A stretch of DNA of 64,000 nt from an uncultured Verrucomicrobiae bacterium. Lineage in GTDB: Bacteria > Verrucomicrobiota > Verrucomicrobiia > Chthoniobacterales > UBA10450. Below the pieces are notes generated by a model, which worked only from the letters and a program-made list of their open reading frames with translations, made no database searches and had not been told where the DNA came from. The stretch covers positions 288,001 through 352,000 of the forward strand of contig CAVSDR010000003.1 of NCBI GenBank assembly GCA_963726745.1, read 5' to 3'. The translations under genes and the position numbers were made by a program. How positions within the stretch are numbered: the first letter of the stretch is position 1; every line of letters starts with the position of its first letter. Of the stretch, positions 1-63,084 are shown piece by piece.

Positions 1-577
1 CAATCTCACGCCGCTCTTCCCGGTGCACGATCTCGGGCCCTACCACGCGAAGGCGCACGTCTATTTCGCCGATCTCGGGAAGTTCTTTTACTCCGAGACG
101 AAGGTCTTCCAAGTGATCGATGTGCGGCCGTTTTGGCAGCGCACCGTCGGCGTGCCCGAGGGCCAGCCAGGCGCGGGCGAGATGCGCACCTATTCGCTGC
201 TCTCGAATCGCTTCCCGAACTACACCAGCATCTACGTGCGCGTGGAGGACAAGACGAGCAACGCGGTCTACAACACCTTCTCGTTAGGCCGGGTGATCGC
301 GGCCGATGAACCGCAGGTCGAGCTCGATGGGCAAAACCGCCTGCATGTGCTCCATTGCGCCGCGCCCCGCACCTGGAGCTACAACCAAATCGGGCCCAGT
401 GGGGAATTGCTCGCGCATCGCACCATCCAGGAAACCAAGACCCGGCCAAAGCTGCGGCGCACCGAGACCGGCAGCGTTGCCATTCGCGGCGGCATGCTGG
501 ACGCTCCCATGCCGTCCCAAGCCAATGCTGCCGCCAAACTCTCCGCCCGCCCGCCCGAACCTGCCGATGACGAATAA
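1..577 (+). CDS. Hypothetical protein, probably 5'-truncated by the window edge
   Basis: Open frame with GC3-rich codon use that ends at TAA 575-577 and overlaps the start of the amidase; no recognisable family. Confidence 0.6.
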   Translation, partial: NLTPLFPVHDLGPYHAKAHVYFADLGKFFYSETKVFQVIDVRPFWQRTVGVPEGQPGAGEMRTYSLLSNRFPNYTSIYVRVEDKTSNAVYNTFSLGRVIAADEPQVELDGQNRLHVLHCAAPRTWSYNQIGPSGELLAHRTIQETKTRPKLRRTETGSVAIRGGMLDAPMPSQANAAAKLSARPPEPADDE

Positions 578-1433
578 ATCCGCCCCGCGCTTCCGCTTCC
601 GTGCGCTGGGCTGGTTCGTCCTGCTCCTCGCCCTTTTCACCGCGCAGACCGCCCCGGCCCAGTCGCGCACGATCGTGATCGATGCCGGCCACGGCGGCTT
701 CGATCGCGGCGGCGTGCCCTACCAGCGGATCGGCGAAAAAAATCTTACCCTCGACGTGGCTCAGCGGCTCGCGCGAATCATGCGCTCCGCCGGTTACCGC
801 GTGATCATGACGCGCGACAGCGACGTCTTCATTCCGCTCGGCCAGCGCGTCGCCATCGCCAATCGCTACCGCGGCGCCATCTTCGTCTCGGTGCACTTCA
901 ACTCCGCCTCGCGCTCCGGGGCTAACGGCATCGAGACTTATTACTACCGGAGCGACGCTGCCAGCCTGGCGGCTAATATTCACCGCAACGTCGTCGCGGG
1001 CGCGCCCTCGGAGAATCGCGGGATTCGCCGGCGCGGTTACTACGTGCTCCGGCGGACGAATATTCCCGGCGTGCTGGTCGAGTGCGGCTTCCTGACCAAT
1101 CCCACCGAGGGCCGCTACGCGCTCGACTCGAACTACCGCGAAAAGCTCGCGCAAAACATCGCCCGCGGCATCCAGCGCCAGCCGCCGCCATTCCTCCGCC
1201 CGATGTCGCGTTCCAGCGCGGCTTCGCCGGAAGTGCTCCCGCAGCCCTTCAATGGCCCCGATTTCGTCCGCGCCGCGCCGCGCAGCAGCAAGGCCTCCTC
1301 CAGTCGCAAGGGGAAGGCTTCGCGCAAGAGCAGCAGCAAGAGCAAGGCGTCGAAGAAAAAATCCTCCAAGTCTTCAAAGAAGAAAAAGAGCAGCAGCGGC
1401 AGCTCGAAGAAGAAAAAGAAGAAGTCGGGTTGA
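567..1433 (+). CDS. N-acetylmuramoyl-L-alanine amidase (Amidase_3) with signal peptide and Lys/Ser-rich tail
   Basis: ATG at 567 (MTNKSAPRF...), hydrophobic signal, motifs IVIDAGHGG, EKNLTL, FVSVHFNS, GIETYY, VLVECGFLTN. Confidence 0.9.
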   Translation: MTNKSAPRFRFRALGWFVLLLALFTAQTAPAQSRTIVIDAGHGGFDRGGVPYQRIGEKNLTLDVAQRLARIMRSAGYRVIMTRDSDVFIPLGQRVAIANRYRGAIFVSVHFNSASRSGANGIETYYYRSDAASLAANIHRNVVAGAPSENRGIRRRGYYVLRRTNIPGVLVECGFLTNPTEGRYALDSNYREKLAQNIARGIQRQPPPFLRPMSRSSAASPEVLPQPFNGPDFVRAAPRSSKASSSRKGKASRKSSSKSKASKKKSSKSSKKKKSSSGSSKKKKKKSG

Positions 1434-1434
1434 G

Positions 1435-2884
1435 GTGGAAACGCGCGTGGTGAGTGTCGCCGGGATGCGGGCCGCGGAAGAAGCCGCCTTCGCCCGCGGG
1501 CACACCCCGGAAGCGCTCATGGACCAGGCCGCGGCGGGCATCGCGCGCGCCGTCCGTTCCTTCTTCCCCGCGCCCGGTCATTGCGTGGTTTTCGCCGGGA
1601 AAGGCAACAATGCGGGCGACGCCTTGGTCGCCGGGCAGCTTCTGCACGCCGCCGGCTGGAGCCTCGAGCTCCGGCTCTGCTTTCCCGAGAACTCGTTAGG
1701 CGATCTCGCGCGCCGGAAGTTGCTGTCTAATTCCCCGGGCCCGCGCGTCGGCGGACCGGTGGTGATCCTCGATGGCCTGCTCGGGCTCGGGGCGCGGCTG
1801 CCGTTGCGCGAGCCGATTCTCTCCGCCTGCCGCGCGCTCAACGCCCTGCGCACCGCAGCCCGCGCCTTCGTGGTCGCGATCGATTTGCCCACCGGGCTTG
1901 ATGGCGAGACCGGGGAGGCGGCCGAGGACTGCGTGGTGGCCGACCTCACCGTCACGCTCGGCGCGGCCAAGCGCGGCCTGCTCGCAGACGAGGCGCTCCA
2001 TTACGTCGGACGGCTGGAGGTGGTCGCGCTGCCGGCACGTGGAATTCGAGGGCGCCGCCGAGGAAACTGTCGCCACTGCGGAGTCGTTAGGCGGCATTCT
2101 CACGCGGCGCGCTTTTGGCGCCTACAAGAACCAGTTTGGGCGCGTCGGCGTGGTCGCCGGGTCGCGCGGGCTCACCGGCGCGGCCGTCCTTTGCGCCAGC
2201 GGCGCGCTTCGGGGGGGCGCCGGCTTGGTGGAACTTTTCGCGCTCGAGGAAATCTATCCGACGCTGGCCGCCGCGGCGCCGCCGGAGGTGATGGTGAAAC
2301 CGGTAAAGGATTATCGCTCGTTAGGCGACGAGGCGGTCGACGTCTGGGCGATCGGCCCCGGCCTCGGGAAAAGAGACGACCTCCTCGACCTGATCGAGCG
2401 CGCGCCCCAGCCAATGGTGCTCGATGCCGATGGCTTGAACCTCTTCGCCGGCCAGCTCGACTTGCTGGCTACTTCTCGCGGGCCGCGCCTGCTCACGCCG
2501 CACCCCGGCGAGATGCAGCGCCTCCAGCCGACGGAAAATCTCGGGCGCGCCGCGCAGGCTCGCCGTTTCCTCGAGAAAGTAGACAGCACTTTGTTGCTCA
2601 AAGGCAGCCGCACGATCGTGGCCGCGCGCGGCCGGCCGCTGAGCTACAACAGCACCGGCCACCCAGGCATGGCCACCGGCGGGATGGGCGATGTCCTCAC
2701 CGGCGTGTGCGCGGCCTTGCTCGCGCAAAAGCTCTCGCCCTACGACGCCGCGCGACTCGGCGCGTGGGTTTGCGGCCGGGCCGCGGAGCTGGCGATTTTC
2801 CAGGGCCACGCGAGCGCGCAATCGTTTCTCCCGACGGATCTGCTGGCCCATCTCGGCCGCGCTTTTCGCGAAGTCGCCGGCTAA
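1435..2884 (+). CDS. nnr: Bifunctional NAD(P)H-hydrate epimerase/dehydratase (YjeF family), frameshift near 2040
   Basis: N-part in the ORF 1252 frame (GKGNNAGDAL, ILDGLLGLG, IDLPTG); C-part in the ORF 1772 frame (IGPGLG, VLDADGL, LTPHPGE, MATGGMGDVLTG). Confidence 0.88.
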
Positions 2885-4914
2885 TTTTCCGGACGCGCGA
2901 GCAATTTCGCAAAGCGCGGATGGCTCCGCAGCTCGTCCCATTCCCAGCGGAATTTCAGGTCGCTCACGGTCACGCTGTAGTCCACGCTGTCGACGGCGCC
3001 GGGCATGTCGATCAGTTGCTCGAGCAAATCGAGCGCGTGCTCGTTTTCGCCCACGCGCGCATAGATGAGCGCGAGCGAGCAAAGCATGAGCGCGCCGTCA
3101 AAGGCATCCTTCGAGAGCGGCTTCAGCTCGACTGCGCGCCGCCCGCTGCGGATGGCCTCGTCGTGCCGCCCGAGGAACGCCTGCACCATCCCGAGGTTCG
3201 CATGCCGCGCGGCCACCTCCGGCGCTTCCTCGACCGCTTTCTGGAAAAAGATCCGCGCTTCCTCGAGCGGCCCCGCGGCCGCCGCGGTGTCGCCGCGCGC
3301 GAGCGCGATGCAGCCGCGAAAGAAGCTCACCGGCGTGAGGCTGCCATTCGCGTAGGAAATTTCCCCGAGCGCGGTCGCGTCGATTACCTTGGTGGCGCCG
3401 GCAAAATTACGCTGCAACATCTGCGCCTCCCAGCGCGCGGAGGTGACGACGCCATCAGGATCAATGCCCGCAGGAATGGCATTGGCCTCTCGCTGCAGCG
3501 ACCCGATTTCGCCCTTCCACCAGAACTGGATGTAAGCGCTCTGGATCACGGCCACGATCGATTCCGGGGCCAGCCGGCGCAGCCGTTCGGCCGCCTTGGC
3601 CGCGCCCGCCCAGCGCCGCAGGGCGGTGTTGGTGAACATGAGATTGCGCACGTTGTTCGGGTTGCGCGGGTCGAGCTTCTCGATGCTCTCGTAGGCCGCG
3701 AGCGCGCGCTCGAACTGCCCCTGCCGCCGAAGAATCGCGGCCACGAGCACGCCGATGCTGGTGTCGTTAGGCAGGAGTTGCTGCGCCAGCGCGAGCTCGC
3801 CCAGGGCCTTGTCGTAATCCTGGTGCATCCAGTAAAGGCATTGCGCGCGGGCGAAGTGCGCCTCGCCCAGGTTTGGCTGCAACTCGAGCGCGAGCGCGGC
3901 CTCTTTTTCCGCGAGCTCGCGCCATTGGTCGAGCGGCTCGTGGAAATGGAAAATCGCCGCCGCGGTCGAGGCCAGGCGCGCGTGGGCCAGGGCAAACTCC
4001 GGGTCGAGCGCGATCGCGCGGCGGTAGAGCTCCTCCGCCCGGCGATAGTCCTGCAGAAGCGTATCCGGCCCTTGCTCGTAGGGCAGGGCGCGCAGGTAAA
4101 GATCGTAGGCCTCGGCGTTGTCCGTCGGCTGGCGGACGACGCGCTCCTTTTCGTCCGCGGTCAAGGTCACGCGCAGGGCCTCGGCGATCTTGCTGGCTAA
4201 TTCGCCCTCGATCCCTAACGAGTCCGCGAGGGTGCGGTTGTAACGATTTGCCCAGAGATGGCGCCCGCGCCGGGTATCGATCAACTGCGCGTTCACGACC
4301 ACGCGATCGCCCGAGCGGCGGACGCTGCCTTCGAGAATATTGACCACGCCCAGGGCTCCCGCGATTTCCCGGAGGTCGCGCTGGCCCTCGGTGCCTTTGT
4401 AGGCCTTCACGCTCGTGCGGCTGATCACGCGCAGGTCTTTGATCCGCGCGAGATTGGTCAGCAAATCCTCCTGCAGCCCGTCGGCAAAAAAGGCGTTCGC
4501 CTTGTCTTCGCTCAGGTTTTCGAAGGGCAGGACGGCGATGCTTTTCTCGTGCGGCGCGCGCGGGCGAAAGCGATCGAAGAGCAGGAGCGCGACCGCGAGC
4601 GTGAGCACCGCGATGATCGCAAAGTCGAGCTTTCGTCCGAAGGCGCGCCGCCGTTGGATCGGCTGCAGCGGCACATCCTCGGTGCGCACGAGGCCTTCCG
4701 GCGTGAGCTCAAAAGCCCAGGCCAGGATGAGAGCCACGGGAAACCCGGCCACCAGCAGGACGATGATCGTGCGCACCGCCCAGCTGGAGACGTCGAAAAA
4801 CGGGAAGACCTGCGTGACCACCTGGATGAGCACCCAGGCGGCGGCCACGTAGCCCACGGCGGCACGGTAGACATTGCGGCGGCGGAGTTCGGCGAGGAAT
4901 TTGGGGAGATTCAC
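2881..4914 (-). CDS. Membrane-anchored TolB-like/adenylate-cyclase-associated domain + TPR protein (paralogue 1)
   Basis: GTG start (VNLPKFLAELRRRNVYR), 3 TM segments, KSIAVLPFENLS...VISRTS...LEGSV...HLWA, TPRs, terminal WDELRSHPRF. Confidence 0.85.
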   Translation of the reverse strand: MNLPKFLAELRRRNVYRAAVGYVAAAWVLIQVVTQVFPFFDVSSWAVRTIIVLLVAGFPVALILAWAFELTPEGLVRTEDVPLQPIQRRRAFGRKLDFAIIAVLTLAVALLLFDRFRPRAPHEKSIAVLPFENLSEDKANAFFADGLQEDLLTNLARIKDLRVISRTSVKAYKGTEGQRDLREIAGALGVVNILEGSVRRSGDRVVVNAQLIDTRRGRHLWANRYNRTLADSLGIEGELASKIAEALRVTLTADEKERVVRQPTDNAEAYDLYLRALPYEQGPDTLLQDYRRAEELYRRAIALDPEFALAHARLASTAAAIFHFHEPLDQWRELAEKEAALALELQPNLGEAHFARAQCLYWMHQDYDKALGELALAQQLLPNDTSIGVLVAAILRRQGQFERALAAYESIEKLDPRNPNNVRNLMFTNTALRRWAGAAKAAERLRRLAPESIVAVIQSAYIQFWWKGEIGSLQREANAIPAGIDPDGVVTSARWEAQMLQRNFAGATKVIDATALGEISYANGSLTPVSFFRGCIALARGDTAAAAGPLEEARIFFQKAVEEAPEVAARHANLGMVQAFLGRHDEAIRSGRRAVELKPLSKDAFDGALMLCSLALIYARVGENEHALDLLEQLIDMPGAVDSVDYSVTVSDLKFRWEWDELRSHPRFAKLLARPEN

Positions 4915-5015
4915 AGCGGCGCGTCTGGGGAAGAGTAGCCGAAGGGTCAAGCCGTGCAGGTGCTTTCGCGGAAATGACTTCTCGCTGGCGGCGCGGCGAA
5001 TTAGCATGCGCGGCC

Positions 5016-8000
5016 ATGGCCGGTAAGCTCATCGTTCTTGCCGGCTGCATCCTGGCTGGCTTCGCGGCCACGCCGCCGGCTCGCGCGGAAATAGACAGCG
5101 CCCTGACCGCTTCCGTCTGGCAGATGAAATTCGGCCTGACCGCGGCGCAGGTGAACGATCCGGCGTGGCTGGCACAGGACAGCGACGGTGACGGCCTAAC
5201 GAATGGTGCGGAACTGATCGCGGGCACGGATCCGTTGGCGGCCAATTCCGGTTTGGCGAACAAGAACACGAGTGCCGCGGGCGGAGCGTTCTCCGTGAGC
5301 GTGCCGACGGTTGCGGGCAAGCTTTACCACCTCGAGTGGAGCCGGGAAGCCAACGGCGCCGGCGGCTGGATGGCCTTGGCGCCGCCGGTGCAGACGCTCG
5401 GCAACGGCAGCGTGCAAACTCTGGCCGCACCGCAAGCCGCCGACGCCTTTTATCGCGTGGTCGTGGAGGAGATCGACAGCGACGCCGATGGCGTGAGCGA
5501 TTGGGCGGAAATCGTGACCGGCTTCGATCCGCACAATACGCACACCGACGGCGCGACCACGGACGACCACACCGCGCTCACAGGCCAGCTGGCGAACGAA
5601 AACGTGGTCACGCTCGTGGCCACCGATCCGAGCGTGCAGCAACCGCCCGACGCCGCGACCCCGCCCGCGAGCAACGGCTCGATCACGCTCCGGCGCGGCG
5701 GCACCTTGCACTTCAGCACCGTGACCGTGGCTCTGACGCACAGCGGCACGGCTGACGGAGGGGACGGATTACCTGCCGCTGCCGGGCTCGGTGACTTTCG
5801 CGCCCAAGGTCAGCTCGATCAAAGTCCCGGTGATCCCGCTGGCTAATCCCGTGCGCCGGAGCAACGCCACCGTGACTTTGCAAGCAATGCCCGGCGGCGG
5901 CTACGTAGTCGGCGCACCGGCGGCCGCGAGTGTGGTCCTCCAGCCCGCGGGCACCCCCAGCGGCAGCGGCTTGACCGGCTCCTATTATAACTCCAGCTCG
6001 AGCGCGATCGGCGCCGGTTACAGCCCGAATCTCTTCCTCGCGGCCAACCTGAAAGCGACCCGGCTCGACCCGACGGTGGATTTCAATTTCAGCACCGCCG
6101 GCGTTTTGCCCACGGGCGTGAACACGACCTACTTCGTGGTTCGCTGGCTCGGCCAGGTGCAGCCGCAATACTCCGAGACCTACTACTTCAATACCCGCAC
6201 CGACGACGGAGTGAAGCTTTGGGTGAATGGCCAGTTGATCATCGATCGCTGGGTCAACCAGGGCGCGACCGACTGGGTGGGCGCGATCGATCTCCAGGCC
6301 GGCGTGCTCTACGACATCCGGATGGAATATTACCAGTCCACCAGCAGCCGCGAGGCGCACCTGAATTGGTATAGCGAGAGCCAGGTGAAGCAGATCATCC
6401 CGGCGGCCCGGCTTTATCCCGCGACCGCCACCGCCGCGCCGCCTTCCCTCACCGGCAGCCTGAAAGCGGTCGGCTTCCGCGGGCAGCCGTTTAGCTACAC
6501 GGTGAGCGCGAGCAACTCCGCGAATTTGCCGACTACTTTCACCCTCGGCGCGGGGAGCGGCGCGTTGCCGCCAGGGTTGAGCTTGAATCCCGGGAGCGGC
6601 GTGATCAGTGGCACGCCCACGCAAGCGGGCGCCTTTCAGGTGGCGCTGGTGGCCACGAACGCGCTCGGCCTCGGCAGTTCCGTGCTCGAGCTGCAAATCC
6701 TCGACCCGGGCAACGCGGTCACGCGCGAGCTTTGGACCACCGGCGTGACCGGGCCGGAGCTGCGCGACATCCCGCTGGCTAATCCGCCGGGCAGCATCGA
6801 CCAGTCGTTAGTCACGCTCGAAGATAACGCCGTCTATCCCGACAACACCGCCGAGCGGCTGCGCGGTTACTTCACTGCGCCCACCACCGGGAACTACTAT
6901 TTCTGGCTGGCGGCGAGCAACACCGCCGAGCTCTGGATTTCGAACAACCGCGAGCCGGTGAACAAAGTGCGCCGCGCTTCCGTGGCCGCGCCGGGCACAA
7001 GCCCAGGCGTTTGGGACGCGCAGCCCGCGCAGAAATCTCCCTGGCTCGCGCTCGTCGCCGGGGAGCGCTACTACTTCGAGGTGCTGCAAAACAAAGGCAG
7101 CGGCACGCCGAACGATCACCTCGCGGTCGCCTGGTTCCTCGATCCCACCGGCACGCTCGACCAACCGATTGCGAACGGCACCAGCGTGGTCCCCGGCTAC
7201 CTGCTTTCGCCCTACGATTACCCGGCGACCGCAACCGCCAGCGGCACGCTCTACGCCACCAACATGGCCCCGCAAGGCCTTGCCCTAACGACCGCGGTCG
7301 GCTCGGCCAATCTCCGGCTCAATGCCGATCACACCCAGGCGATCCTGCATTTCCAATACAGCGGTCTCGGCTCGCCGCGCACCGGTTACCACGTCCACGT
7401 CGGAAGCCTTCGGCACGCACCCCAGCCAGATCATTCTCGACCTCGACGACATCGATAAATTTCACCCCGAACTTCGAACCGCGGATGGTGGTTACCTTTG
7501 GAACATCGAGGCCACCGGCACCCTCAGCGCGGCCGAGATCGTGAGCGCGATCCAGCAGGGCAAGGCCTACATCAATATTCATTCGGTGAACTATCCGGCC
7601 GGCGAGATCCGGGGAAATTTCAGCCTCGTCCAAGGCTCGCAGACTCCGCCAATGCCGCAGCCGGATCCGGGTTACGATCCGGCCAGCGCCAGCACCGATG
7701 CGGGCGCGGCGCGCTTCCTGAACCAGGCGACTTTCGGCGCCAGCCCGGCGGACATCGCCGCGGTCAAGGCCCTCGGATTTGACGGTTGGCTCACGAGCCA
7801 GTTCGCGCAACCGGCGACCCATCTCCTGCCCGAGGTGCTGGCTAAAATCACCGCCGACCCGACAAATCTTTACCCGAGCACGCTCACCTTTAATGCCTGG
7901 TGGCGCCGTGCCGTGACTGCGCCCGATCAGCTCCGCCAGCGCGTCGCTTTCGCCCTGAGCGAAATCCTCGTGGTCTCCGATACCGGCACGCTGAACAACA

Positions 8001-10087
8001 ACGGTCGCGTCCTCGCGAGCTATTACGACACCCTCCTCGACCAGGCCTTCGGCAACTTCCGCACCTTGCTCGAGCAGGCGACGCTCACGCCGGCAATGGG
8101 CCTTTACCTCGACATGCGCGCAAACCAGAAAGGCAGCCTCCTGACCGGGCTGCACCCGAACGAAAACTACGCGCGCGAGATCATGCAGCTCTTCTCGTTA
8201 GGCTTAAACCGCCTCTGGCCCGATGGCTCGCTCGTGCTCGATTCGCAGGGCAACCTCATCCCGACCTACGACCAGGAGGTAATCAACGGCGTCGCCCGCG
8301 TCTTCACTGGCTGGAATTATAACCAGCCACTTCAGGGCAACGGCCGCCTCCCGACCGGCTTCAGCCCGGCGGCCAATTACATCGACCCGATGGTGCTGGT
8401 GCCCACCCGCCACGAACTTGGGACTAAGCGGGTGCTCGACCGCGTGGTCCTCCCGGCCGCGCGCGGCTACAGCCTAACGAGCAATCCACCAGCCGGCTCC
8501 GAGGCCAACCCCGACAACCCGGCCTTCGATACCTATTGCTTGAACGATCTTCAAAAGGCGCTCGCGAGCATGTTCAGCAACGCCAGCGTAGGCCCGTTTG
8601 TCTGCCGGCAGCTCATCCAAAGGCTCGTCAGCAGCAACCCCTCGCCCGCTTATCTCCAGCGCGTGGTCCAAAAATTCGAGGACGACGGCAGCGCGCAACA
8701 CCTCCGCGGAAACATGCAGGCGGTCATCCGCGCGATCCTGCTCGACGGCGAAGCCCGCGGGAACATCGTCAGCACCACCCAGGGAAAACAGCGCGAGCCG
8801 CTCCTGCGGATCACCGGTCCGGCGCGCGCCTTCCCCACCAGCGGGAACACCGGCAGCTTCACGCAAAGCGGCGGCCTGGCCATGACCATCACCACCGCGG
8901 CGCCGCATCTCCTGACCGGTGGCCAGGCAGTTGCGCTTGATTTTGCCAGCAACACGCCGGCGCCTTTCGACAATCCCACGAGCGGGAACTACGCCGTCCT
9001 GAGCAGCCCCGGGCCCACCGCCACCACCTTCACGGTCAACGCCACCGGCCTAACGAGCGCTGCCTACACCCAGGCGGCCAACTCGAACACGATCACCGTG
9101 ACCGTCACCAGCAGCACCAATCCGCCGGTGAACACCAAGCTTTACCTCCACCCGGTCAGCGGCGGCGCGCCTGGTGGCGTCTTCGTGGTTGCCGCGCAAA
9201 CCGACTCGACGCACTTCACCGTCGCGACTACGGAAAATCCGCCGCCCACGTCCGCCCGCAGCGGCACCTTCCTGATCCATCGCATGACTGCCGGGGAAGC
9301 GGTGCGCAACGCCGGCACGCCCGTCACTTCCACGATCACGCTGTCGACCTCCGCGAATCACAACCTGCAGGTGAACGACCCGGTCTGGATCGATTTCGCC
9401 AGCGCCTCCGGCTCCGTTAATGCCGATGGCCAATTCACCGTCAATAGCGTGGTCGACGAGGACCATTTCACCGTCGTGGTCCCAAACTCAACCATGACCC
9501 AGGAGACGATCAGCACCTCGACCGTTTTCCCGCTGCTCGCGCCGCCGCTGGTGCGCTCCGGCAGCGTGCGCTTCGAGCAGAGCAAGTTCGACGTCGGCTA
9601 CAGCAACAGCGATCTCACCCAGACCCCGCTCGGCTCGCCCACGGTCTTCAATTTCTTCTCGCCCGACTATCAATTTCCCGGCTCGCTCGCGGCCAATCAC
9701 GCCACCACGCCGGAGTTCCAGCTCACGACCGACACCAATGTGGTCACGCTCACAAACACCATCTCCTCCGCGATCCTCTCCTCCGGCAACACGAACGGCC
9801 TCACGAGTTACAAGGCGGGCGGGAACACGGTCACGATGGACCTGAGCGCCTACATGACCTCCGGCCAGACGTCGAACGCCGCCATCCCCGCGCTGGTCGA
9901 TAAATTAGCCGACCTCCTCACCGGCGGTCAGCTCGCCCCGGAAACCAAAACCGTGATCGTGAACTTCGTGGCCAACACGACCACCTTCCCGATGAGCGCC
10001 ACGCCCACGGCGACGCAGATGCGCGATCGCGTGCGCGCGGTGGTCCATCTCATCGTCACTTCGCCCGAGTACGCCATCCAGCGCTAG
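5016..10087 (+). CDS. Large secreted DUF1800-family protein with Ca-binding DxDxDG repeats, two PA14 domains, putative Ig (He_PIG) and CHRD domain; frameshifts near 5755 and 7405
   Basis: Signal peptide at 5016; DSDGDGLTN; PA14 (VRWLGQVQP, TDDGVKLWVNG); ISGTPT; YINIHSVNYPAGEIRG (CHRD); DUF1800 motifs AARFLNQATFG, DQLRQRVAFALSEI, PNENYAREIMQLFSLG, SPTVFNFF, SPEYAIQR. Confidence 0.82.
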
Positions 10088-10101
10088 CCGCCGCCCACTT
10101 C

Positions 10102-16183: not shown

Positions 16184-16219
16184 TGCCCGCCGTCGCAGAC
16201 TACCATGAGCCGCACGGTA

Positions 16220-35363: not shown

Positions 35364-35378
35364 CGAGTCATTTCTCCC

Positions 35379-36527: not shown

Positions 36528-36573
36528 GCGCAGGCATGAGAAGATAAGCGAGCCGCAGCCTGATCCAGCCCGA

Positions 36574-38487: not shown

Positions 38488-38622
38488 GCCGATTCAGAAG
38501 ATTCATCGAATTTCAGCAGCATCCTAAAGACTTTCAGACGCAAACCGAAGAAAAATGGGTGCGCATCGAACTCGCCGTGCCGGCAGCTGATGCAAGCAGG
38601 AAACCCATCAGGCAGACCGATT

Positions 38623-41774: not shown

Positions 41775-41781
41775 AATCGGC

Positions 41782-42528: not shown

Positions 42529-42532
42529 CCGC

Positions 42533-43840: not shown

Positions 43841-43874
43841 TTTCGTCACCCAACCACACCACCCACCTCATCCT

Positions 43875-47139: not shown

Positions 47140-47150
47140 GGCAATTTCCT

Positions 47151-48674: not shown

Positions 48675-48692
48675 TATTGGGCGAGCGAATGA

Positions 48693-52800: not shown

Positions 52801-52845
52801 CCGGCAGGCTGGTCGCGCCGGGACGTTTTTGTTAAAGCTGCGGCC

Positions 52846-54052: not shown

Positions 54053-54645
54053 TCGGGCGTGCGCTCGCCATGCGCCAGGCGGCGCAAGCGCGGCTCGCAC
54101 AGGAGCACCGCGAGGGCGCAGGGGGCGGTTTTCATGAGGCCCATTTGCACCTGCTCGATCGCTTCCGCCACCGGCACGAGCTGCACTTCGATACTCTCAC
54201 TCGCTTCCTTCTCGGTCTCGTGCGCGAGCTCCACGCCTTCAGCCAGGAAGACGTGGCACTTCTCGTCGCAGGTGGAATTGGCCGAGTAAAAATAGTCGAC
54301 GTAATGGAAGGCCGCAGCTGTTCCGCCGACTTCCTCCTTCAGTTCCTTGCGCGCCACTTCCTCGAGCGAAGCGCCATCGCTATCGTGCATCCCGCCGGCC
54401 GGCACCTCCAGGCACCACTCGTCGACGGCGTAACGATATTGCCGCAGCATGACCATGCGCCCGTCCTTCGTCACCGGCACAATCACGACCGCGTCGCCAC
54501 GTTCCAGGTAGGCAAACTGCAGCTTCTTCCCGTCGGCTAATTCGACCGCGTCCTCGCGCACCCGGAAGATGTCGTTTCGAAAACGCTCTTCGCTCGCGAC
54601 CTGGGTCCAGCCCGCTTTCCTTCCGTTCGGCTTGTCGTTTTTCAT
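54034..54645 (-). CDS. NUDIX hydrolase (ADP-ribose pyrophosphatase-like)
   Basis: RQYRYAV..LEVPAGG..ARKELKEEVG; ATG at 54645 in a TAATG overlap with the upstream gene. Confidence 0.85.
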   Translation of the reverse strand: MKNDKPNGRKAGWTQVASEERFRNDIFRVREDAVELADGKKLQFAYLERGDAVVIVPVTKDGRMVMLRQYRYAVDEWCLEVPAGGMHDSDGASLEEVARKELKEEVGGTAAAFHYVDYFYSANSTCDEKCHVFLAEGVELAHETEKEASESIEVQLVPVAEAIEQVQMGLMKTAPCALAVLLCEPRLRRLAHGERTPDHLLET

Positions 54646-56193
54646 TAGGTTCCCTTCGCAGTGCGGTAATGATCGGCCAGCGGATAACTCCGCGCCACCA
54701 ACCCGAAAGGCCAGCGCGGCGGCAAAGGCAAAGGCGGCAAAGAAAAACATCTGCGCCGCGGTCACGCCGAAATTAGCCGACCGGATGGAAGCGAGCACGC
54801 CTTCGTTTTGCACCACCGCATTGACCACCAGGACCCAGAGATTGCCGATCGTGACCGAGAGATTCCAGAAGGCCATGATCGCGCTTTTCATCGTCAACGG
54901 CGCCTGGCTGTAGGCAAACTCGAGCCCGGTCGCGGAGACGAGCACTTCGCCAAAAGTGAGGAAAGTATACGGCAACATCTGCCAGAAAATCGAAAGCGTG
55001 CCGGCGCCATCGAGGACGAGTTGCATCAAGCCAATCACGATCCAGGAGAGCCCGGAGAAGGCGATCCCCGCAGTCATGCGCCGGAGCGCAGTCATCTCGT
55101 AGCCAAAACGCCGCAGCGCCGGATAGAGCACGAGGTTGTTGAAGGGGATCAAGACCATCACGAGCAGCGGATTGAGCGCCTGCATTTGCGAAGCCTGGAA
55201 CCAACTGGGCGAGCTCATGGTTTTCCCCTGCAAAACCCAGGTGGAAGCTTTCTGGTCAAAGAGCGACCAGAACGGCGTGACCAGCGCGAAAAGCACGAGC
55301 ACGCGCAGGACCGAGCGCACCCCGGCGATCGCGTCCGGCGGATGCACCTCGCGCACGTCGTCGAGTTGCAGCCAAACCCCGAGCCCGCCGAGCGCGATCA
55401 CCGAGACGAGCGCGAGGCAGGCCGCGATGACAAAGCCGAGCTGCGGCATGAGCACGAAGGCCACGACCGCGCCGGCCACCGCCAGAAAAGCGAAAACGCG
55501 GCCGCGCGTCCCGGCGTTGAGCGCGCTCGCGCTCACGCGCAGAAACGAGTGCGGATTTGGCGGCGCCGGCGGGACCATGACGTATTGCCGGCGGCCCCAC
55601 CAAAGGATCATCGTGGCGATGAACATGAGCGCGCCGGGAATGCCGAAAGCGATCGAGGCGCCGAGATGCCGCAGGAAAATCGGCATCAGGAGCGAAGCGA
55701 AGAAGCTCCCGAAATTAATGATCCAGTAGAAGGAATCGAAGACCACCTTCGCGCGGTGCTTGTTTGTCTGGTCGAATTGATCGCCGACAAACGCGGCCAC
55801 ACAGGGCTTGATCCCGCCGGAGCCGAGCGCGATCAGCCCCAGCCCGGTGTAGAAGCCGTAGCGGTTCGACTCGAAGATCGCCAGGCAGGCGTGGCCCGCG
55901 CAATAGACCAGGCTAAGCCAGAAGATGGTGTTGTACTTCCCGTAGAAGCGGTCGGCCAGCCAGCCGCCGAGCAGCGGAAAAAAGTAAACCCCGATGACGA
56001 AGGTGTGGAAGACATCCTTGGCCGCGAGCGCGCGTTCCCCTTCCGGCAAATAGAGCAGGAGATGCGAGACGAGGAAGATCGTGAGGATGTTCCGCATCCC
56101 ATAAAAGCTGAAGCGCTCGCAGCCTTCATTGCCGATGATGTAGCGGATCTGCCGCGGGATCGGCGCTTGCGGGTCGGGAGTCGTCGCCTGCAC
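54645..56193 (-). CDS. POT-family proton-dependent oligopeptide transporter, frameshift near 54706
   Basis: EGCERFSFYGM, GGWLADR, GSGGIKP, FYWIINFGS, GLEFAYSQAP; removing one T from a TTT run gives FGLVARSYPLADHYRTAKGT*. Confidence 0.88.
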
Positions 56194-56251: not shown

Positions 56252-56671
56252 CTAACGAGTGCTGCGCCGCCAGGCCAGAAGCGTCCAGGCGAAGGTGACG
56301 ATTTCCTGCACGCTGAAGAGGAACGCAAACGCTCCCGGCAGCAACCCCAGCCACCAGAGCCCGGCCACCAGCGGCGGCACCAGCGGCCGGTCGAGCAGGG
56401 TGGCGAAGACAAAGCCCTCGGCATTCAGCCGTCCGCTCACGGTGTAGAGCATCCCGATGCCGGCAATGAGCAGGCCGGCCAGGCGCAGGAACGCGAGCGC
56501 CTGCGCCGCGGGCGCTTCCAAATGCAGCAACGCCGCGACCCAAACCGGGAATAGAACCAGCACACTGCCCTCAAGCAACAGCACCCAGCCATAGAGCTCG
56601 ACCGTGCGCGCGGCCGCCGTTTGGCCGGGGCGCGCCCAGAGACGCCGGAACATTTCGCGGAGCGGAGGCAT
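56252..56671 (-). CDS. Small integral membrane hypothetical protein
   Basis: About 4 hydrophobic segments; collinear with the RND and POT genes. Confidence 0.6.
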   Translation of the reverse strand: MPPLREMFRRLWARPGQTAAARTVELYGWVLLLEGSVLVLFPVWVAALLHLEAPAAQALAFLRLAGLLIAGIGMLYTVSGRLNAEGFVFATLLDRPLVPPLVAGLWWLGLLPGAFAFLFSVQEIVTFAWTLLAWRRSTR

Positions 56672-56733
56672 GGACAAAGTGCTGCCTAAACCTTGCCCGC
56701 CGGGGCCGCCCGTCGTCGAACTTTTTTCGCTCG

Positions 56734-59700
56734 TTAGGCCTGCACGGGCAGCGGCGGGGCCACTGGCTTCCCCTGCTCCGCCTCGTGATGCGTGTGGCTG
56801 CTGCGCAGGAAAGGCACGCGGTCGAGCACGCGCTCCTGGAACCATTCCAGCGCGAGGTAAATAACCGGCGTGATGTAGAGCGTGATCAACTGCGAGATGA
56901 TCAAGCCTCCCACAATCACGAGGCCGAGCGGCCGCCGCGACGCCCCGTCCGCGCCGTAGCCGAGCGCGAGCGGCACCGCGCCCATAAGCGCCGCCAGCGT
57001 GGTCATGATGATCGGGCGAAAACGCTCGACGCTGGCTTCGTGAATCGCGCTGCGGCGATCGTAGCCTTCATCGAGTCGATGGAGCGCGAAGTCGACAATC
57101 ATGATGCCGTTCTTCTTCACGATGCCCATGAGCAGGAAAAGACCGATGACCGAGTAGAGCGAGAGCGTCGAATCGAAAAGCCAGAGCGTGAAGAGGCCGC
57201 CCACGACTGCTGGGAAGAGCGTCGAAAGCACGGTCACCGGATGGACGTAGCTCTCGTAAAGAATGCCGAGGATGACATACATCACAAAGACCGCGCCGAG
57301 GATGAGGAACGGGAGCGCATTGAAGAGCTGCCGGAGCACGAGGCCTTCGCCTTGCAACTCGCCTTTGACCGTCGGCGGGATCACTTCCGTGGCCGTCTTT
57401 TCCAGGAAATCAGTCACATCGCCGAGGGCCACATCCGGCTTCACGTCGAAGCCAAAAGTCACGCTGGTGAACTGGTTGATGTGATTGACTGATTGCAGGC
57501 CGAGCTTCGTCTCCGCATTCGTTAGCGTCTGCACCGGGATGAGTTTCCCGGTGGTGTCACTCTTCACGTAAAGGTGGCGCAAATCATCGGGGCCGGAACG
57601 GTCCGCGCCTTCGACTTCCAGGATCACCTGGTATTGATCGTCGGCCGCCTTGATCAAGTAGACGTAGTTTTGCGAATAAGCGGCGCGCAGGAGATTTTGC
57701 AGGCGAGTGGCGGAGACGCCGTAAAGGCTGGAGCGATCGCGATCGATGTTGATGTCGATGTTCGGCATGTTCCGGAAGAGATCGGAACGTGGCGGCGCGA
57801 CGAAGCCCGGGTAGTCCTTGAGCTTCTTCTCGAAAGCATCGGCCGCGGCGTAGACTTCCTGCGGATTGATCCCGCTCAAGACGTAGCTGTAGCGCCCGAA
57901 ACTGCTCCCGCCGCCGCCGATGTCGATGCGTAAAACGGGCTGCGGATTGAGCGTGGGAAAGACGCCGGGAATGCCGCTTAAGGCAGCGCGCAGATCTTTC
58001 GCCACCTGGTCAATTGGCGGCCGCTCGCTCGCGTCTTTCAGGAAGAGAACCGTGAAAATGCCGGCACTTTGCCCACCGCGCCCGGCCACGGTGAAGTATT
58101 TGTCGACCGCGGGATTAGCCTGCAAGACGGGGTCCAGCCGATCCTGCATGGCTCGCTGCTCCGCCGGCGAAGCACCTTCCTGCATGATAAAGAAACCACG
58201 AATGACCCCGCTATCGCCCGTGGGCAGGAGCGTAAAAGGCAGCGCCTTAAAGAAGAAAACGACGCCTAAACCGCAGAGCAAAACAATCGGGGCCGCGAGC
58301 CATCCATGATTCAAAAACCAATCGAGCGACCGGCTGTAAAAGCGCAACGTGGGCTCGAAGATGTGCTCCGTGAAAATCTCCGTGCGCGTCTTCTTGTGCC
58401 CGGGATTGTGCTCCGAGAGCATGCGCGAGCACATCAGCGGCGTGAGGGTTAACGAGACCAAACCGGACGCCAAAATCGCGACAATGATCGTGACCGCGAA
58501 CTCGAAGAAGATGCGGCCGAGTAACCCCGGCATGAAGACCAGCGGAATGAAAACCGCCGCGAGCGAAAGCGTCATCGACAAAATGGTGAACGAGATCTCA
58601 CCCGCGCTATTCATCGTCGCCTGGTAGATCGACTCGCCGGCTTCCGCGCGGCGGACAACGTTTTCCAAAAAGACGATCGCGTCATCGACCAGGAAGCCGA
58701 TTGCCAGCGTCAGCGCCATGAGCGTGAGGTTGTTGATCGAGAACCCAAGCGCGAACATCGCGATGGTGGTGATGAGGAGCGACATCGGCAGCGCGACCAC
58801 CGGAATGAGCGTGTCGGTCACGCGCCCGAGGAAAAAGAAGATCACCAGAACGACGAGGAAAAAGGCGATCAGGAGCGTCTCCTGCACATCGTGGACCGAG
58901 CGCACGATCGTCTGCGAGCGATCGAAGGTGGGAATCAAGTTGATCGAGCCCGGAAGTTCGCGGCGCAGTTCCGGCACGAGATCGGTCACGGCTTTCGCAA
59001 CCTCGACCGCATTCGCCCCAGCCTGCCGCGAAACCGCAAAGACGATCACGGAAGCCGGCGGCTTAAACCCGCGTGCGAAGAAATGTCGCGAGAGCCGCTC
59101 GTCCTGCACGCCCTCGACCACGCGCGCGACATCGCGCAGGTAAACCGGGGTGTTATCCTTCCCGCGGCCGACGATTAAATTCCGGTAGCCTTCGGCGTCA
59201 GCGATCTGCGCATTCGGCCGCAAGACAAAGGTCCTCGTGGCGCCATCAAACTGTCCCGCGCCGGCGTAGCTCGTGCCCGCGCGGATCGCGGCCGAGAGCT
59301 CGTCCAAGGTCATGTTGCGCGCGGTCAACGCGCCGGGGTCGGCCTTGATCCGGATGGCGCGTTTCACTCCGTAGATCTGCACGTCGGAGACACCTGGCAG
59401 GATGCTGATCCGCTGCTGCACCTGCGTGGTCGCGTAGAGATAAAGGTCGCCGTCGGTCAGCGTTTCACTCGTTAGGGCAACGTAGACGACCGGCTGGTCG
59501 TTCGGGTTGCTCTTGGTAAAAGTCGGCGGGCTCGGGAGATCGGAAGGGAGCTGGCCGCTGGCCTGCTGGATCGCCGCCTGCACGTCGGTGGCCGCGCTGT
59601 CGATGCTCTTCGCGAGGTCAAATTGCAGGGTAATGTTCGTGCTGCCCTGCGTGCTCGAACTGGTGATCAGGAAAATCCCGGGAATCTGGGTGAACTGCTT

Positions 59701-61659: not shown

Positions 61660-61662
61660 GCG

Positions 61663-61682
61663 ATCGTTAGCATGCTAACGAT
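61663..61682. promoter_or_regulatory. Perfect 20-bp palindrome, probable MarR operator
   Basis: ATCGTTAGCATGCTAACGAT, 3 nt upstream of the marR ATG and downstream of a minus-strand TTGACA (61696-61691); core resembles the SlyA box TTAGCAAGCTAA. Confidence 0.75.
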
Positions 61683-61692
61683 TTCTCGCTTG

Positions 61693-63084
61693 TCAACGCG
61701 CAGGCGCGATCTGGAGCAGCGCGATTTCTTTCCCCCGATAATCCCGCACCCGCAGGAGCGTCCGCGCTTCCGGGTGCGCCCGCAGCGTTTGCTTTTCCCC
61801 CGCTGGCTGGACGAACACGAAACGCGCGCCTGGCGGCAGCGCGGAAACTTGGTCGAGATAAACCAGCGGCTCGCGCACGTAGAAGAGCGCTGGCTGATAA
61901 TCGGGGTCGATCGCGTAAAGCGTCTCGTTAGGCGGCAAGACGGCGTTGAGCTGCGCGCCGATGTTCCGGACTTTCTCGCGCTTCCGCAGATGCGGCATGA
62001 GCGCGAAGGCGTAGACGAGCATCCCTACGCAGGCGATGGCGGTCACGATCAACGGCAGGCGCAAGCGCCAGCGATGCGCGCGCAGAAGGCTGGCCGTGAG
62101 CCACGCGGCCGGCGCGAGGAGCGGCATGGTGTAGCGCGCAAGGGAGCCGGGGAGGAGGCTGATCAGGAGAAAGGAGGCCGCGATGCCGAAGGCGAGGCCC
62201 CGGTGAACCTCGAACGTCCCACTCTCCCTCGTTCGACCTTCGACGATTCCCAAAAACAGCAGCACCACCGTCCACGGCAAAAAGTATCCCAGCCCCCGCG
62301 GCACATTCAGAATCCATCCAGAGAACTTGAAATCCTCACCGCTGAGCCGGCCGGAAAATTGCCGCGCCCAAGTGTGCGCCACGGTCTCGCCGCTGCCGGC
62401 CATCGCATGCAGCGCGGGAATCGCCCAAGCGGCGAAAAGAGCCAGCATCATCAAGAGTCCGAGGAGATGCGGAAAGTTGAAGATCGTCCGCAGTTCGCGT
62501 CGGCTAACGAGTGCTCCGAGCACGATCGCGTAAAAGAAGACCAGCAGCACCGGGCCTTTCGCGAGCCAGCCAAGCCCGAGGAAAACGAACGGCACTGTCC
62601 AGGTGAGCCAGGGCGATCGGCGCTCGCTCCACCAACTGAGCCAGCAAACGATCGCCAGCCCCGCGAGCGAAGCATAGAGCGCCTCGAGTTCGATCAAGCG
62701 GCCTTTCTCCAGCATCCCGAAATTAGTCAGCCAGATGAGCGCGCCGCCTAACGAGCCGTAAGCGCCGAGACTCCCGCGCGCGACCGTGGCGAAGGCGAGC
62801 GCCACCAGCAACACGCAGATCGCCGAGGGCAGGCGCGCGGCCCATTCGCTCCGCTCCCCGAAGAGCTTGAAGGAGCCGGCAACCAGCCAATTGATCAGCG
62901 GCGGCTTGCGAAAATAAGGATCGCTCCCGACTTGCGGGACAAGAAAATTGCCCGTCTGCAGCATGGTGATCGCGGGCAGAATGCGGCGGCCTTCCTCGCC
63001 CTTGATCTCGAGCGTGCCTAGACCGGGAAGGTAAAGCAGCGCCCACGCAGCCACGACGAGGAGGATGGAGCGGGCGGCAGTCAT
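61693..63084 (-). CDS. ArnT/PMT-family (GT-C) glycosyltransferase
   Basis: EEGRRILPA..M, YFRKPPLINW, EWAARLPSA, LAKGPV, many TM segments. Confidence 0.85.
   Translation of the reverse strand: MTAARSILLVVAAWALLYLPGLGTLEIKGEEGRRILPAITMLQTGNFLVPQVGSDPYFRKPPLINWLVAGSFKLFGERSEWAARLPSAICVLLVALAFATVARGSLGAYGSLGGALIWLTNFGMLEKGRLIELEALYASLAGLAIVCWLSWWSERRSPWLTWTVPFVFLGLGWLAKGPVLLVFFYAIVLGALVSRRELRTIFNFPHLLGLLMMLALFAAWAIPALHAMAGSGETVAHTWARQFSGRLSGEDFKFSGWILNVPRGLGYFLPWTVVLLFLGIVEGRTRESGTFEVHRGLAFGIAASFLLISLLPGSLARYTMPLLAPAAWLTASLLRAHRWRLRLPLIVTAIACVGMLVYAFALMPHLRKREKVRNIGAQLNAVLPPNETLYAIDPDYQPALFYVREPLVYLDQVSALPPGARFVFVQPAGEKQTLRAHPEARTLLRVRDYRGKEIALLQIAPAR

Follow-up and report, generated by a model that had tools for sequence, protein, structure and literature searches.

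Why should one seven-base string recur dozens of times, on both strands and mostly inside genes, in 64 kb of bacterial DNA? The window analysed here is a stretch of 64,000 nucleotides (G000:C3:288001-352000; contig CAVSDR010000003.1 of assembly GCA_963726745.1) from an uncultured member of the Chthoniobacterales (Verrucomicrobiota), whose genome, G000, comprises 3,406,779 bp in 7 contigs at ~64% G+C and is 94.7%-complete. The string, TCGTTAG or CTAACGA, is the core of an element that we call word 1, with the extended forms CTCGTTAGGC, TCGTTAGGC and ACTCGTTAGGC. A first reading of the window from its letters (the original prediction) had listed the copies of this core and likened them to DNA uptake sequences. 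Beyond what that reading contained, the same window holds a second, species-specific word, the family possesses a third, and words coexist in single genomes. We propose, tentatively, that these words may serve as tags by which cells recognize DNA of their own kind.

Abundance and anatomy of word 1

The window contains 41 word 1 cores (25 TCGTTAG and 16 CTAACGA), whereas 3.06 are expected: 100 dinucleotide-preserving shuffles of the window gave a mean of 3.06, a standard deviation of 1.64 and a maximum of 9, and none of the 100 reached 41. Extension to TCGTTAGGC is found at 24 of the 41 cores, and 17 of the 41 are complete copies of CTCGTTAGGC. Across the genome there are 2,025 cores, 991 on the plus strand and 1,034 on the minus strand, at a density of 0.45-0.70 per kb on all 7 contigs. 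Compared with the expectation of an order-3 Markov model, TCGTTAG was observed 2,025 times versus 194, TCGTTAGGC 1,312 times versus 19.7, CTCGTTAGGC 820 times versus 6.1 (134-fold) and ACTCGTTAGGC 321 times versus 0.6. For a codon-aware null, open reading frames (ORFs) were called with a crude codon-usage finder (2,781 ORFs, occupying 84-88% of each contig) and synonymous codons were shuffled inside each ORF 20 times; in ORFs, TCGTTAG occurs 1,583 times versus ~141 and CTCGTTAGGC 635 times versus ~9.5 (~67-fold). This null is conservative because the rare codons supplied by word 1 stay in the shuffled set.

The original prediction stands up well to these counts. Its 41 copies are all exact in position and strand, its chance estimate of about 4 in the window is close to the shuffled mean, and the codon-aware null by which it proposed to judge the enrichment is far surpassed. 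Nor do the other grounds for refutation that it named apply: word 1 is present throughout the genome, and a basecalling artefact is ruled out for word 1 by its presence in relatives assembled by other groups.

The sequence logo of word 1, W-W-S-S-W-C-TCGTTAG-G-C, spans ~15 bp and is asymmetric and non-palindromic. Information content is at background beyond about -6 and +9; word 1 is therefore not a fragment of a longer repeat. Single-base variants of CTCGTTAGGC at T2, G4, T5, T6, A7 and G8 have 0-28 copies, or 0-6 times expectation, the exception among core variants being C-to-T in the CpG of the core, which is 39-fold enriched; most variants at positions 1, 9 and 10, in the flanks, exceed expectation, the commonest of them 30- to 56-fold. 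As judged from the sequence, such a contrast between core and flank is the profile of a protein recognition site.

Reading frames, stop codons and orientation

Most word 1 copies lie inside ORFs (1,544/2,025, or 76%), either sense (943; frames 657/198/88) or antisense (601; frames 305/296), with another 156 on a gene boundary and 325 intergenic. The commonest arrangement is TCG-TTA-G, encoding Ser-Leu-Gly (657 copies); 88 copies are in the sense frame in which TAG is read as a codon, some of them at least being the ORF's own stop, and none of the 2,025 is in the antisense frame in which TAA would be so read. In the window, crude gene calls put 34 of the 41 copies in ORFs, 5 in intergenic DNA and 2 across a stop codon. 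Word 1 accounts for 662 of the 3,036 TTA codons (as TCG-TTA-G) and 311 of the 1,605 CTA codons (as CTA-ACG-A), so the claims that the motif is read in several frames and draws on rare leucine codons, both made from the window, hold for the whole genome.

Word 1 also supplies the stop codon of 289 of the 2,781 ORFs, 113 as ..CGT-TAG and 176 as C-TAA-CGA. It thereby dictates ~10% of the stop codons of G000, and word 2, described below, dictates roughly 5% more (~148 ORFs). Stop codon usage in G000 is near even (TAA 883, TAG 963, TGA 934) despite 64% G+C, which the stops supplied by word 1 probably explain. Spacers between convergent, divergent and tandem genes all have 0.73-0.76 copies of word 1 per kb, and opposite-strand pairs within 60 bp number only 10 (4 '+-' and 6 '-+') among 2,018 gaps; on this evidence word 1 is no terminator and no promoter element, and a reading of it as a terminator hairpin was rejected on the same two counts.

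Neither word has a preferred strand. Within the limits set by a draft genome in 7 contigs with weak GC skew, the orientation of word 1 is uncorrelated with GC skew (rho -0.013, 69 intervals of 50 kb), and across 33 intervals of 100 kb orientation is binomially homogeneous for word 1 (chi2 35.7, df 32) and for word 2 (chi2 33.2, df 32). GC skew and gene-strand bias in G000 are themselves negatively correlated (rho -0.33, p 0.006, 50-kb intervals), the usual sign being the opposite; the skew is weak throughout.

Distribution of word 1 and age of its sites

Whole genomes of the genus and the order were scanned with the reversed word as control. All 24 other genomes of the same genus contain 138-2,412 copies of TCGTTAGGC (reversed controls 30-118), whereas 16 genomes from 15 other families of the order contain 1-19 copies (controls 12-99) and show no enrichment. 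The family itself was sampled with 121 genomes of 36 genera; G001, G008, G156, G042, G046, G053 and G286 enter the genus, family and order tallies only. Word 1 is enriched in most of the 36 genera, with at least 300 copies in 59 of the 121 genomes, at least 1,000 in 27 of them and a maximum of 4,336 copies in 3.2 Mb (G089); altogether it was found in more than 100 independently assembled genomes. Flank preferences vary by genus: that of G077 (g19) uses the bare 9-mer, and G000 and G154 add an upstream W..C preference.

The nearest records identified via UvrB are Chthoniobacterales and Verrucomicrobiota metagenome-assembled genomes. One of them, L003 (84% UvrB identity), carries word 1 at 0.94 per kb; its alignment with the window covered only uvrB, and G015 was used in its place as synteny reference. 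L003 also contains a second stretch (L003:14412-15117), ~2.4 kb downstream of its uvrB and 83% identical to the 3' part of that gene, which may be a partial duplication.

G000 was aligned with 400-kb samples of G154, G077 and G015 at 72-74% DNA identity. Word 1 sites of G000 are exact at the orthologous place in 27/58 cases in G154 (same genus), 19/53 in G077 (another genus) and 12/97 in G015 (the most syntenic in the region of the window), and 10.7% of arbitrary 9-mers remain intact between G000 and G015 as aligned (74% identity). The exact sites in G154 and G077, set against this baseline, indicate that many word 1 sites predate the genera. Among the 97 sites compared with G015, 60 differ at 2-7 of 9 positions (baseline mean 2.16), and alignment gaps coincide with 22 more (baseline 8.1%). 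Poorly conserved stretches of genes, prone to indels, are thus where new copies arise. Amino-acid identity to the G015 orthologue is 0.636 at word 1 codons and 0.770 overall. Word 1 is mostly located in peptides that allow it, with some amino-acid replacements as cost, and the constraint on it acts at the DNA level rather than the protein level.

The searches of the literature for word 1 returned no description of it, the listed string matches to the 9-mer all being unrelated, and those for DNA uptake sequences or natural competence in Verrucomicrobia found no such words; the view that the motif is undescribed for this lineage agrees with these results.

Word 2, a young word specific to G000

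Word 2 is a degenerate signal of ~18 bp with the logo R-A-A-W-TTAGCC-R-G-C-R-M-N-W-T-S (AAWTTAGCCRGC..) and ~1,100 copies. A k-mer survey of G000 counted TTAGCCAGC 479 times versus 15.7 and TTAGCCGAC 315 times versus 11.7, and the commonest exact 18-mer (AAATTAGCCGGCAACTTC) has only 7 copies. The pattern TTAGCC[AG][GA]C occurs 1,139 times (575 +, 564 -) with near-Poisson spacing, and 25 times in the window versus 1.13 expected. Like word 1 it is found in several ORF frames: Leu-Ala-Asn/Lys (on the antisense strand), Leu-Ala-Ser/Asp and x-Ser-Gln.

In the form WTTAGCCRGC, word 2 has 691 copies in G000 (control 63) and is clearly enriched in no other genome among 34 of the genus, 121 of the family and 201 of the order (317 others searched). 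The next best are G015 (164 versus 80), G046 (72 versus 58) and G169 (51 versus 21). Borrowing from another lineage was considered and rejected, as no other genome of the order (n=201) exceeds ~2.4 times its control. G015 has a weak echo of the word, TAGCCGACA occurring 20 times versus 0.67 in 400 kb. Word 2 sites are shared at 2/80 places with G015, 0/49 with G154 and 0/43 with G077; at these places relatives carry near-words such as TTCGCGAGC that encode the same amino acids, and amino-acid identity to G015 at word 2 codons is 0.689, versus 0.770 overall. The few shared sites, the near-words and the kept amino acids together indicate that word 2 is young, that it arose by point substitutions under protein constraint and that it is no basecalling artefact. 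Short-read contigs from three soil runs of one study that are 92-99% like positions 1-20000 of the window show no word-site change among the differences listed, and neither confirm nor refute word 2.

Words 1 and 2 meet at 92 hybrid sites (TCG-TTAG-CCRRC), which satisfy both cores via a common TTAG; these hybrids are the only case of a fixed spacing between the two words.

Word 3 in other genera of the family

G073 (genus g49) has no word 1 and instead carries word 3, TGTCGATCTT, with 21 copies in 62 kb versus 0.44. In the family sample, word 3 reaches at least 200 copies in 40 of the 121 genomes and at least 1,000 in 20 of them (reversed controls 0-8). It dominates genera other than those of word 1, in which it has 8-65 copies (22 in G000). 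Word 3 contains GATC, and none of words 1-3 is palindromic. Both words can be abundant together, as in G090 (1,234 copies of word 1 and 4,179 of word 3), and in G066 both are neutral in orientation (word 1 166:170, word 3 333:333). Neither word 1 nor word 3 is enriched in 11 of the 121 genomes, for example most of genus g22 and G063 of genus g39 (13 and 14 copies), and in 300 kb of G063 no word at all is hyper-abundant.

A variant of word 3 in G066 (G066:C14:1-400000; L213-L232) ends in TTAG(C), with 51 copies of TGTCGATCTTAG and 41 of GTCGATCTTAGC beside the usual ..CTTGC. The TTAG that ends this variant is also the common core of words 1 and 2.

Spacing and word deserts

Word 1 copies in G000 avoid one another. 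Gaps of 100 bp or less number 44 versus 118 ± 10 expected, and those of 300 bp or less 193 versus 333 ± 15 (z about -9), close gaps being equally depleted whether the two copies share a strand or not; an excess is seen at 400-2,000 bp. Self-avoidance is also present in G066 (11 gaps of 100 bp or less versus 27 ± 4.7), where that of word 3 is mild.

Long gaps are in excess as well, with 15 of at least 10 kb in G000 versus 5.6 expected. The 19 word 1 deserts of at least 9 kb were scanned with Pfam, in a set of 182 ORFs that also took in two pilin-gene regions. Desert genes comprise exopolysaccharide and O-antigen loci, secreted peptidases, dockerin proteins and pilin clusters, together with a few very constrained operons (ATP synthase, mreBCD-PBP2, H+-pyrophosphatase). 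Word 1 is depleted, and rare, in accessory DNA. No methyltransferase or restriction-modification genes were among the 182 ORFs scanned. One 36-kb O-antigen/polysaccharide island (G000:C7:49001-85500; L150, L151) has 58% G+C, is nearly free of words 1 and 2 and has 28 of its 30 genes on one strand.

Genes for DNA import and modification

G000 encodes generic functions for DNA import: ComEC (an 849-aa ORF), DprA, a 103-aa ComEA-like helix-hairpin-helix protein and three secretins, as well as four PilB-like and six PilT-like ATPases and ~12 pilin-like ORFs. A study of abundant soil bacteria links ComEC-containing loci to high recombination, Verrucomicrobia being among the phyla studied (Crits-Christoph et al. 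2020).

Two paralogous clusters, each of two pilin-like ORFs and a DUF7305 protein (G000:C6:620352-626133, L144; G000:C3:584383-586936, L138), lie in word 1 deserts, one of them 2 kb from dprA. As candidates for the reader of the words they were rejected, since DUF7305 is absent from the word-rich genomes G013 and G024 and present in 7 of 8 word-poor g22 genomes.

G000 has one DNA methyltransferase of N6/N4 type and one of C5 type, and Type I-like pieces lie at the ends of contigs; no match to a Vsr-type endonuclease appeared in the genome, which is 94.7%-complete. A Type I-like N6 methyltransferase domain is split between G000:C4:371899-372432 and G000:C6:336-1251, and contigs C4 and C6 may abut at this point.

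Word copies in the window

Sites in the window were aligned with the relatives G002, G013, G015, G024 and G078, a site being called G000-only if private to G000 among the relatives aligned. Five word 1 sites are common to several species: the CTCGTTAGGC copy at 281..287 (+), in an ORF in the Ser-Leu-Gly frame and kept at the orthologous place in G013, G024 and G078; the copy at 3764..3770 (+), antisense in an ORF and conserved in G002, G013, G015 and G078; the CTCGTTAGGC copy at 8195..8201 (+) and the core followed by CC (TCGTTAGCC) at 10954..10960 (+), each conserved in G015 and G024; and the core at 18662..18668 (+) within uvrB, conserved in G013, G015, G024 and G078. Private to G000 are the ACTCGTTAGGC copy at 1693..1699 (+), intergenic by crude calls and compared with 4 aligned relatives; the copies in ORFs at 2084..2090 (+) and 2318..2324 (+); the copy at 5196..5202 (-), antisense in an ORF; the copies at 8474..8480 (-) and 9050..9056 (-), the latter at an indel in relatives; and also the core at 10417..10423 (-). 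The copy at 4215..4221 (-), in an ORF, is common to G013 only; the cores at 6805..6811 (+; TCGTTAGTC) and 7285..7291 (-) occur also in G015, from which the CTCGTTAGGC copy at 13904..13910 (-) is absent.

Word 1 meets gene ends at the core at 12225..12231 (+), which ends ORF 11686-12231 with its TAG; at the core at 35360..35366 (-), where the complement TAA stops ORF 32802-35363; at the copy at 36521..36527 (+), whose TAG stops ORF 35379-36527; and at the copy at 56731..56737 (+), which overlaps the stop codon of an AcrB-family gene (56734-59988, - strand). Further copies recorded as CTCGTTAGGC lie at 15919..15925 (-), 24534..24540 (+; intergenic by crude calls), 31727..31733 (+), 61925..61931 (+) and 62748..62754 (-), and further ones recorded as ACTCGTTAGGC at 29437..29443 (-) and 56252..56258 (-). 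Remaining copies are at 11801..11807 (-), 12874..12880 (+), 21144..21150 (+), 47591..47597 (+; antisense in a Pup-ligase gene) and 53966..53972 (+), and remaining cores at 11728..11734 (+), 21858..21864 (+), 51260..51266 (+; intergenic and followed by CC), 51725..51731 (-), 57519..57525 (+) and 59469..59475 (+). The only close inverted pair in the window is intergenic, with its left arm at 61664..61670 (+) and its right arm at 61675..61681 (-), both cores. A hybrid site (TCGTTAGCCGAC) combines a word 1 core at 62504..62510 (-) with a word 2 half at 62499..62507 (-) through their common TTAG.

Word 2 copies for which relatives were compared are those at 2876..2884 (-; TTAGCCGGC), absent in G015; 4192..4200 (-; TTAGCCAGC), absent in 4 relatives; 5838..5846 (-), where relatives have TTCGCTTGC or TTTGCCTGC; 6774..6782 (-), 9905..9913 (+; TTAGCCGAC) and 11025..11033 (-), each absent in 3 relatives; 7837..7845 (-), where relatives have TTCGCGAGC; 10986..10994 (-), where G015 has TTCGCGAGC; 15729..15737 (+), where G015 has TTCGCCAGG; and 19018..19026 (-), at the end of uvrB and absent in 5 relatives. 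The TAG of the copy at 52797..52805 (+) closes ORF 51766-52800, and the copy at 23243..23251 (-) is the commonest 18-mer (AAATTAGCCGGCAACTTC). Further copies lie on the plus strand at 13846..13854, 19918..19926, 21054..21062, 22953..22961, 35904..35912 and 54773..54781, and on the minus strand at 27770..27778, 31585..31593, 33413..33421, 35093..35101, 48872..48880 and 54532..54540.

An 11-kb desert without word 1 or word 2 (36528..47590), belonging to the 19 word 1 deserts of at least 9 kb, is occupied by secreted protease, dockerin, Kelch and beta-helix genes. The Pup ligase (PF03136, E 1.7e-168) adjoins a proteasomal AAA ATPase with Mpa-type OB domains (window 47151-50450), a pupylation module.

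Repeats of other kinds were seen in three genomes. G000 has long tandem hexamer arrays, in which (GTTGGC)n 14-mers such as TTGGCGTTGGCGTT occur ~140 times, (GAGTCG)n ~50 times and TTGGTGTCGGGGTT 33 times; these probably encode repeat proteins or are satellite-like. A repeat unit of ~20 bp with GGGTCGTACAGTTCC has 13-18 copies per 400 kb in G077 (G077:C12:1-400000), and a longer repeat with AGTCTCGCCCTA has 12 copies per 300 kb in G063 (G063:C2:1-300000); both look like repetitive extragenic palindromes (REP).

What the words may be

The reading that we favour, in a tentative way and with doubt slightly outweighing confidence, is that the words are uptake-sequence-like self-DNA tags spread by molecular drive. 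TCGTTAG is the invariant core of an asymmetric word of ~15 bp (WWSSWC-TCGTTAG-GC), which is probably read by a sequence-specific protein, and the word would have spread by point mutation together with a bias favouring DNA that carries it exactly. The most likely bias would be that which underlies uptake sequences in Neisseriaceae and Pasteurellaceae: competent cells would bind and import DNA of their own kind via a word-specific receptor and then recombine it, and an allele gaining the word would be over-transmitted (molecular drive) wherever the protein tolerates it, as in Ser-Leu-Gly, x-Leu-Thr-x and Pro-Asn-Glu/Asp peptides, stop codons and spacers. The reader would accordingly act at DNA uptake and would be a pilin-type receptor. 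G000 appears to have begun accumulating word 2 (RAAW-TTAGCC-RGC-RM-N-WT-S) around the same TTAG, which may reflect a second or altered reader specificity that arose in the lineage of this species.

The degenerate, position-weighted logos, the all-or-none core and the kept amino acids argue for protein recognition and biased fixation of point mutations, and against templated writing, a mobile element or an artefact. To our knowledge, uptake-coupled molecular drive is the only process described that gives such a signature, and most of its genomic hallmarks are present in G000. The original prediction had offered three readings, namely an uptake signal, a nucleoid-protein site and a motif driven by methylation or repair. 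The likeness to uptake sequences that it put forward is upheld by how many copies there are, by their indifference to orientation, by the frames they use, by their occurrence throughout the family and by their scarcity in accessory DNA; the coexistence of words does not agree with it.

Several further observations weigh against uptake tags. The organism is known from a metagenome-assembled genome alone. ComEC is present in 115 of the 121 family genomes, including all 8 word-poor g22 genomes and the word-less G063, and was dropped as a discriminator on account of its presence in word-poor genera; pilin-like gene counts were likewise dropped, G066, G089, G045, G063 and G073 having 15-19 such genes each, with no contrast between word-rich and word-poor genomes. 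No receptor candidate emerged among the pilin-like genes, and the distribution of the DUF7305 clusters does not follow that of the words. Pairing of words in terminators, habitual in Neisseriaceae, is absent, as the rarity of close opposite-strand pairs and the equal spacer densities show. Even spacing is not general and was given up as a common property: self-avoidance of word 1 is weak in G154 (38 gaps of 200 bp or less versus 50.3 ± 5.5) and absent in G077. Two words are dense in G000 itself (2,025 cores of word 1 and 1,139 copies of word 2); words 1 and 3 are both above threshold in 8 of the 121 genomes, and the 2.9 Mb of G066 contain 1,803 word 1 copies next to 4,653 of word 3. We know of no described uptake-sequence system with two unrelated words in one genome. 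In G000, word 2 lies nearer to word 1 than chance, and in G066 word 1 is within 100 bp of word 3 in 123 cases versus 99 ± 8. Self-avoidance without cross-avoidance in G066 indicates that the words behave independently, yet interchangeable tickets into one saturable import route should repel one another. Coexisting unrelated words, independent spacing and the lack of terminator pairing thus misfit a simple one-receptor model.

An extended form of the uptake proposal, possible in our estimation and more doubtful than credible, is that the family runs an evolvable multi-word self-DNA recognition, in which at least three words, unrelated or half-related to one another (TCGTTAGGC; TGTCGATCTT; AAWTTAGCCRGC..), each with thousands of copies, would be read independently and gained or lost by lineage. 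G000 may in that event have been caught acquiring a new word around the old TTAG core, at its 92 hybrid sites.

Many of these facts could also be accommodated by sites of intracellular chromosome readers, whether a nucleoid-structuring protein or a self-marker that spares the cell's own DNA from a nuclease or defence system, with a separate reader for each word and per-site selection in very large soil populations maintaining the words. We think this unlikely, but it would account for the sharp recognition-site profile of one-off variants, orientation neutrality, rarity in accessory DNA and the coexistence of several words in a single genome; self- but not cross-avoidance, too, fits separate readers that need one site per few hundred bases. 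The absence of self-avoidance in G077 speaks against such readers, for which no candidate protein was found, and no known nucleoid protein or self-marker gives a 100-fold excess of an exact 10-mer in genes at an amino-acid cost like that at word 1 codons. The 11 family genomes that are without words 1 and 3, among them whole genera, make an essential structural role unlikely. Biased mutation or repair, in which a methyltransferase, nickase or mismatch-repair partner corrects near-matches and the word itself has no function, as reportedly proposed for cyanobacterial HIP1, seems to us improbable. A directed process of this kind would explain the 60 sites that differ from G015 at 2-7 positions, the turnover of words at species level (word 2 being clearly enriched in G000 alone) resembles that of restriction-modification specificities, word 3 contains GATC, and G000 encodes N6/N4, Type I-like and C5 methyltransferases. 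However, the words are asymmetric and, at 10-18 bp, far exceed the targets of methyltransferases in length; many positions of word 2 are degenerate, which is unlike the product of templated or enzymatic correction; one-off variants are not below background, contrary to what an enzyme correcting near-matches would leave; and neither a Vsr-type endonuclease in the genome nor a methyltransferase in the word deserts was detected.

Recombination hotspots of the Chi type and FtsK-orienting polar sequences (KOPS), or other sequences imparting architecture to the chromosome, are disfavoured as explanations of word 1 and in our view very improbable. Copy number is of the right order, and the reverse complement of word 2 begins GCTGG, like Escherichia coli Chi. 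Nevertheless, no strand polarity is seen for words 1 and 2, whether by contig or by 100-kb interval, the family has several words unrelated to one another, and the enrichment of Chi is one to two orders of magnitude below that of the words; the exclusion of Chi and KOPS, which had been argued from a strand ratio of 25:16 in the window, is borne out by the ratio of 991:1034 in the genome and by the statistics of skew and homogeneity given above. Scarcely credible, finally, is an origin of the signal in systematic basecalling error at a modified motif or in the footprint of a small mobile repeat such as REP or a miniature inverted-repeat transposable element (MITE). G000, being in 7 long contigs, is probably a long-read assembly, and no other assembly shows clear enrichment of word 2; against this stand the more than 100 independently assembled genomes with word 1, the confinement of information to ~15-18 bp without conserved flanks, the orthologous amino acids kept at word 2 sites, the G015 echo of TAGCCGACA and, weakly, the short-read soil contigs. 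Word 1 lacks the longer conserved unit, hairpin and mainly intergenic location of REP and MITE, three quarters of its copies being in ORFs and none in the antisense TAA frame.

Significance

The genomic signature of self-DNA tags, so far reported only from two proteobacterial families (10.1101/2025.10.24.684340), is now found in Verrucomicrobiota, in a large uncultured family of soil bacteria, where words 1-3 touch the wider question of how the specificity of uptake sequences arises and changes. If the multi-word proposal is true, switching of specificity in uptake-like systems is radical and fast. G000 versus G015, word-1 versus word-3 genera and the word-less genera are natural contrasts for finding the reader, and the same contrasts could test whether transformation-driven molecular drive shapes the genomes of dominant soil lineages. 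As strong markers of lineage, the words are also of use in binning and in the detection of foreign DNA within genomes of the family.

Comparison with known systems

The paper by Helsem et al. 2025 (10.1101/2025.10.24.684340) describes self-DNA recognition by uptake sequences in two families, Neisseriaceae (8 dialects) and Pasteurellaceae (2), with ComP as receptor in the former and ComN as predicted receptor in the latter, and places about half of the uptake sequences of Neisseriaceae, and >90% of their inverted pairs, within terminators. Another recent source likewise predicts the minor pilin ComN as receptor of the Pasteurellaceae uptake signal sequence (USS) (PMC12616744).

Word 1 resembles the Pasteurellaceae USS, with its 9-base core, in combining an asymmetric core with weaker flanking positions, in occurring one to two thousand times per genome on either strand, in lying mostly in genes and in their cheapest frames, and in being family-wide with type variants. 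In G000 it is also more evenly spaced than chance, as Karlin and colleagues are said to have described for USS, and the drive model of uptake sequences reportedly goes back to Redfield and colleagues. Unlike the USS, the words have a verrucomicrobial host and unrelated sequences; one family has several unrelated words and single genomes have two, core variants of word 1 with one substitution are not enriched, and even spacing is not general in the family.

With the DNA uptake sequences (DUS) of Neisseriaceae, whose dialects were reportedly defined by Frye and colleagues, the words have in common a length of 10-12 bases, thousands of copies, family-wide occurrence with dialects, enrichment in the core genome, rarity in recently acquired DNA and avoidance of stop-containing frames. 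In contrast to DUS, word 1 has only 10 close opposite-strand pairs among its 2,018 gaps and no preference for convergent spacers; and whereas DUS dialects are a few bases apart, the words of this family are unrelated (TCGTTAGGC, TGTCGATCTT) or have only TTAG in common. DUS and USS systems are not known to combine unrelated words in one genome, whereas G000 and G066 have two words each.

The cyanobacterial highly iterated palindrome HIP1, treated together with alternate highly iterated palindromes reportedly by Elhai in 2015, is said to be, like the words, a hyper-abundant, lineage-specific short sequence found in genes in all frames, with its mechanism unsettled. Unlike HIP1, reportedly a palindrome tied to a methyltransferase site, the words are asymmetric and longer, with no methyltransferase gene seen in the word deserts of G000 and no Vsr in its genome. 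What sets the present system apart from all known ones is that one family has unrelated words, that single genomes have two, and that one of these words is clearly young and specific to a species.

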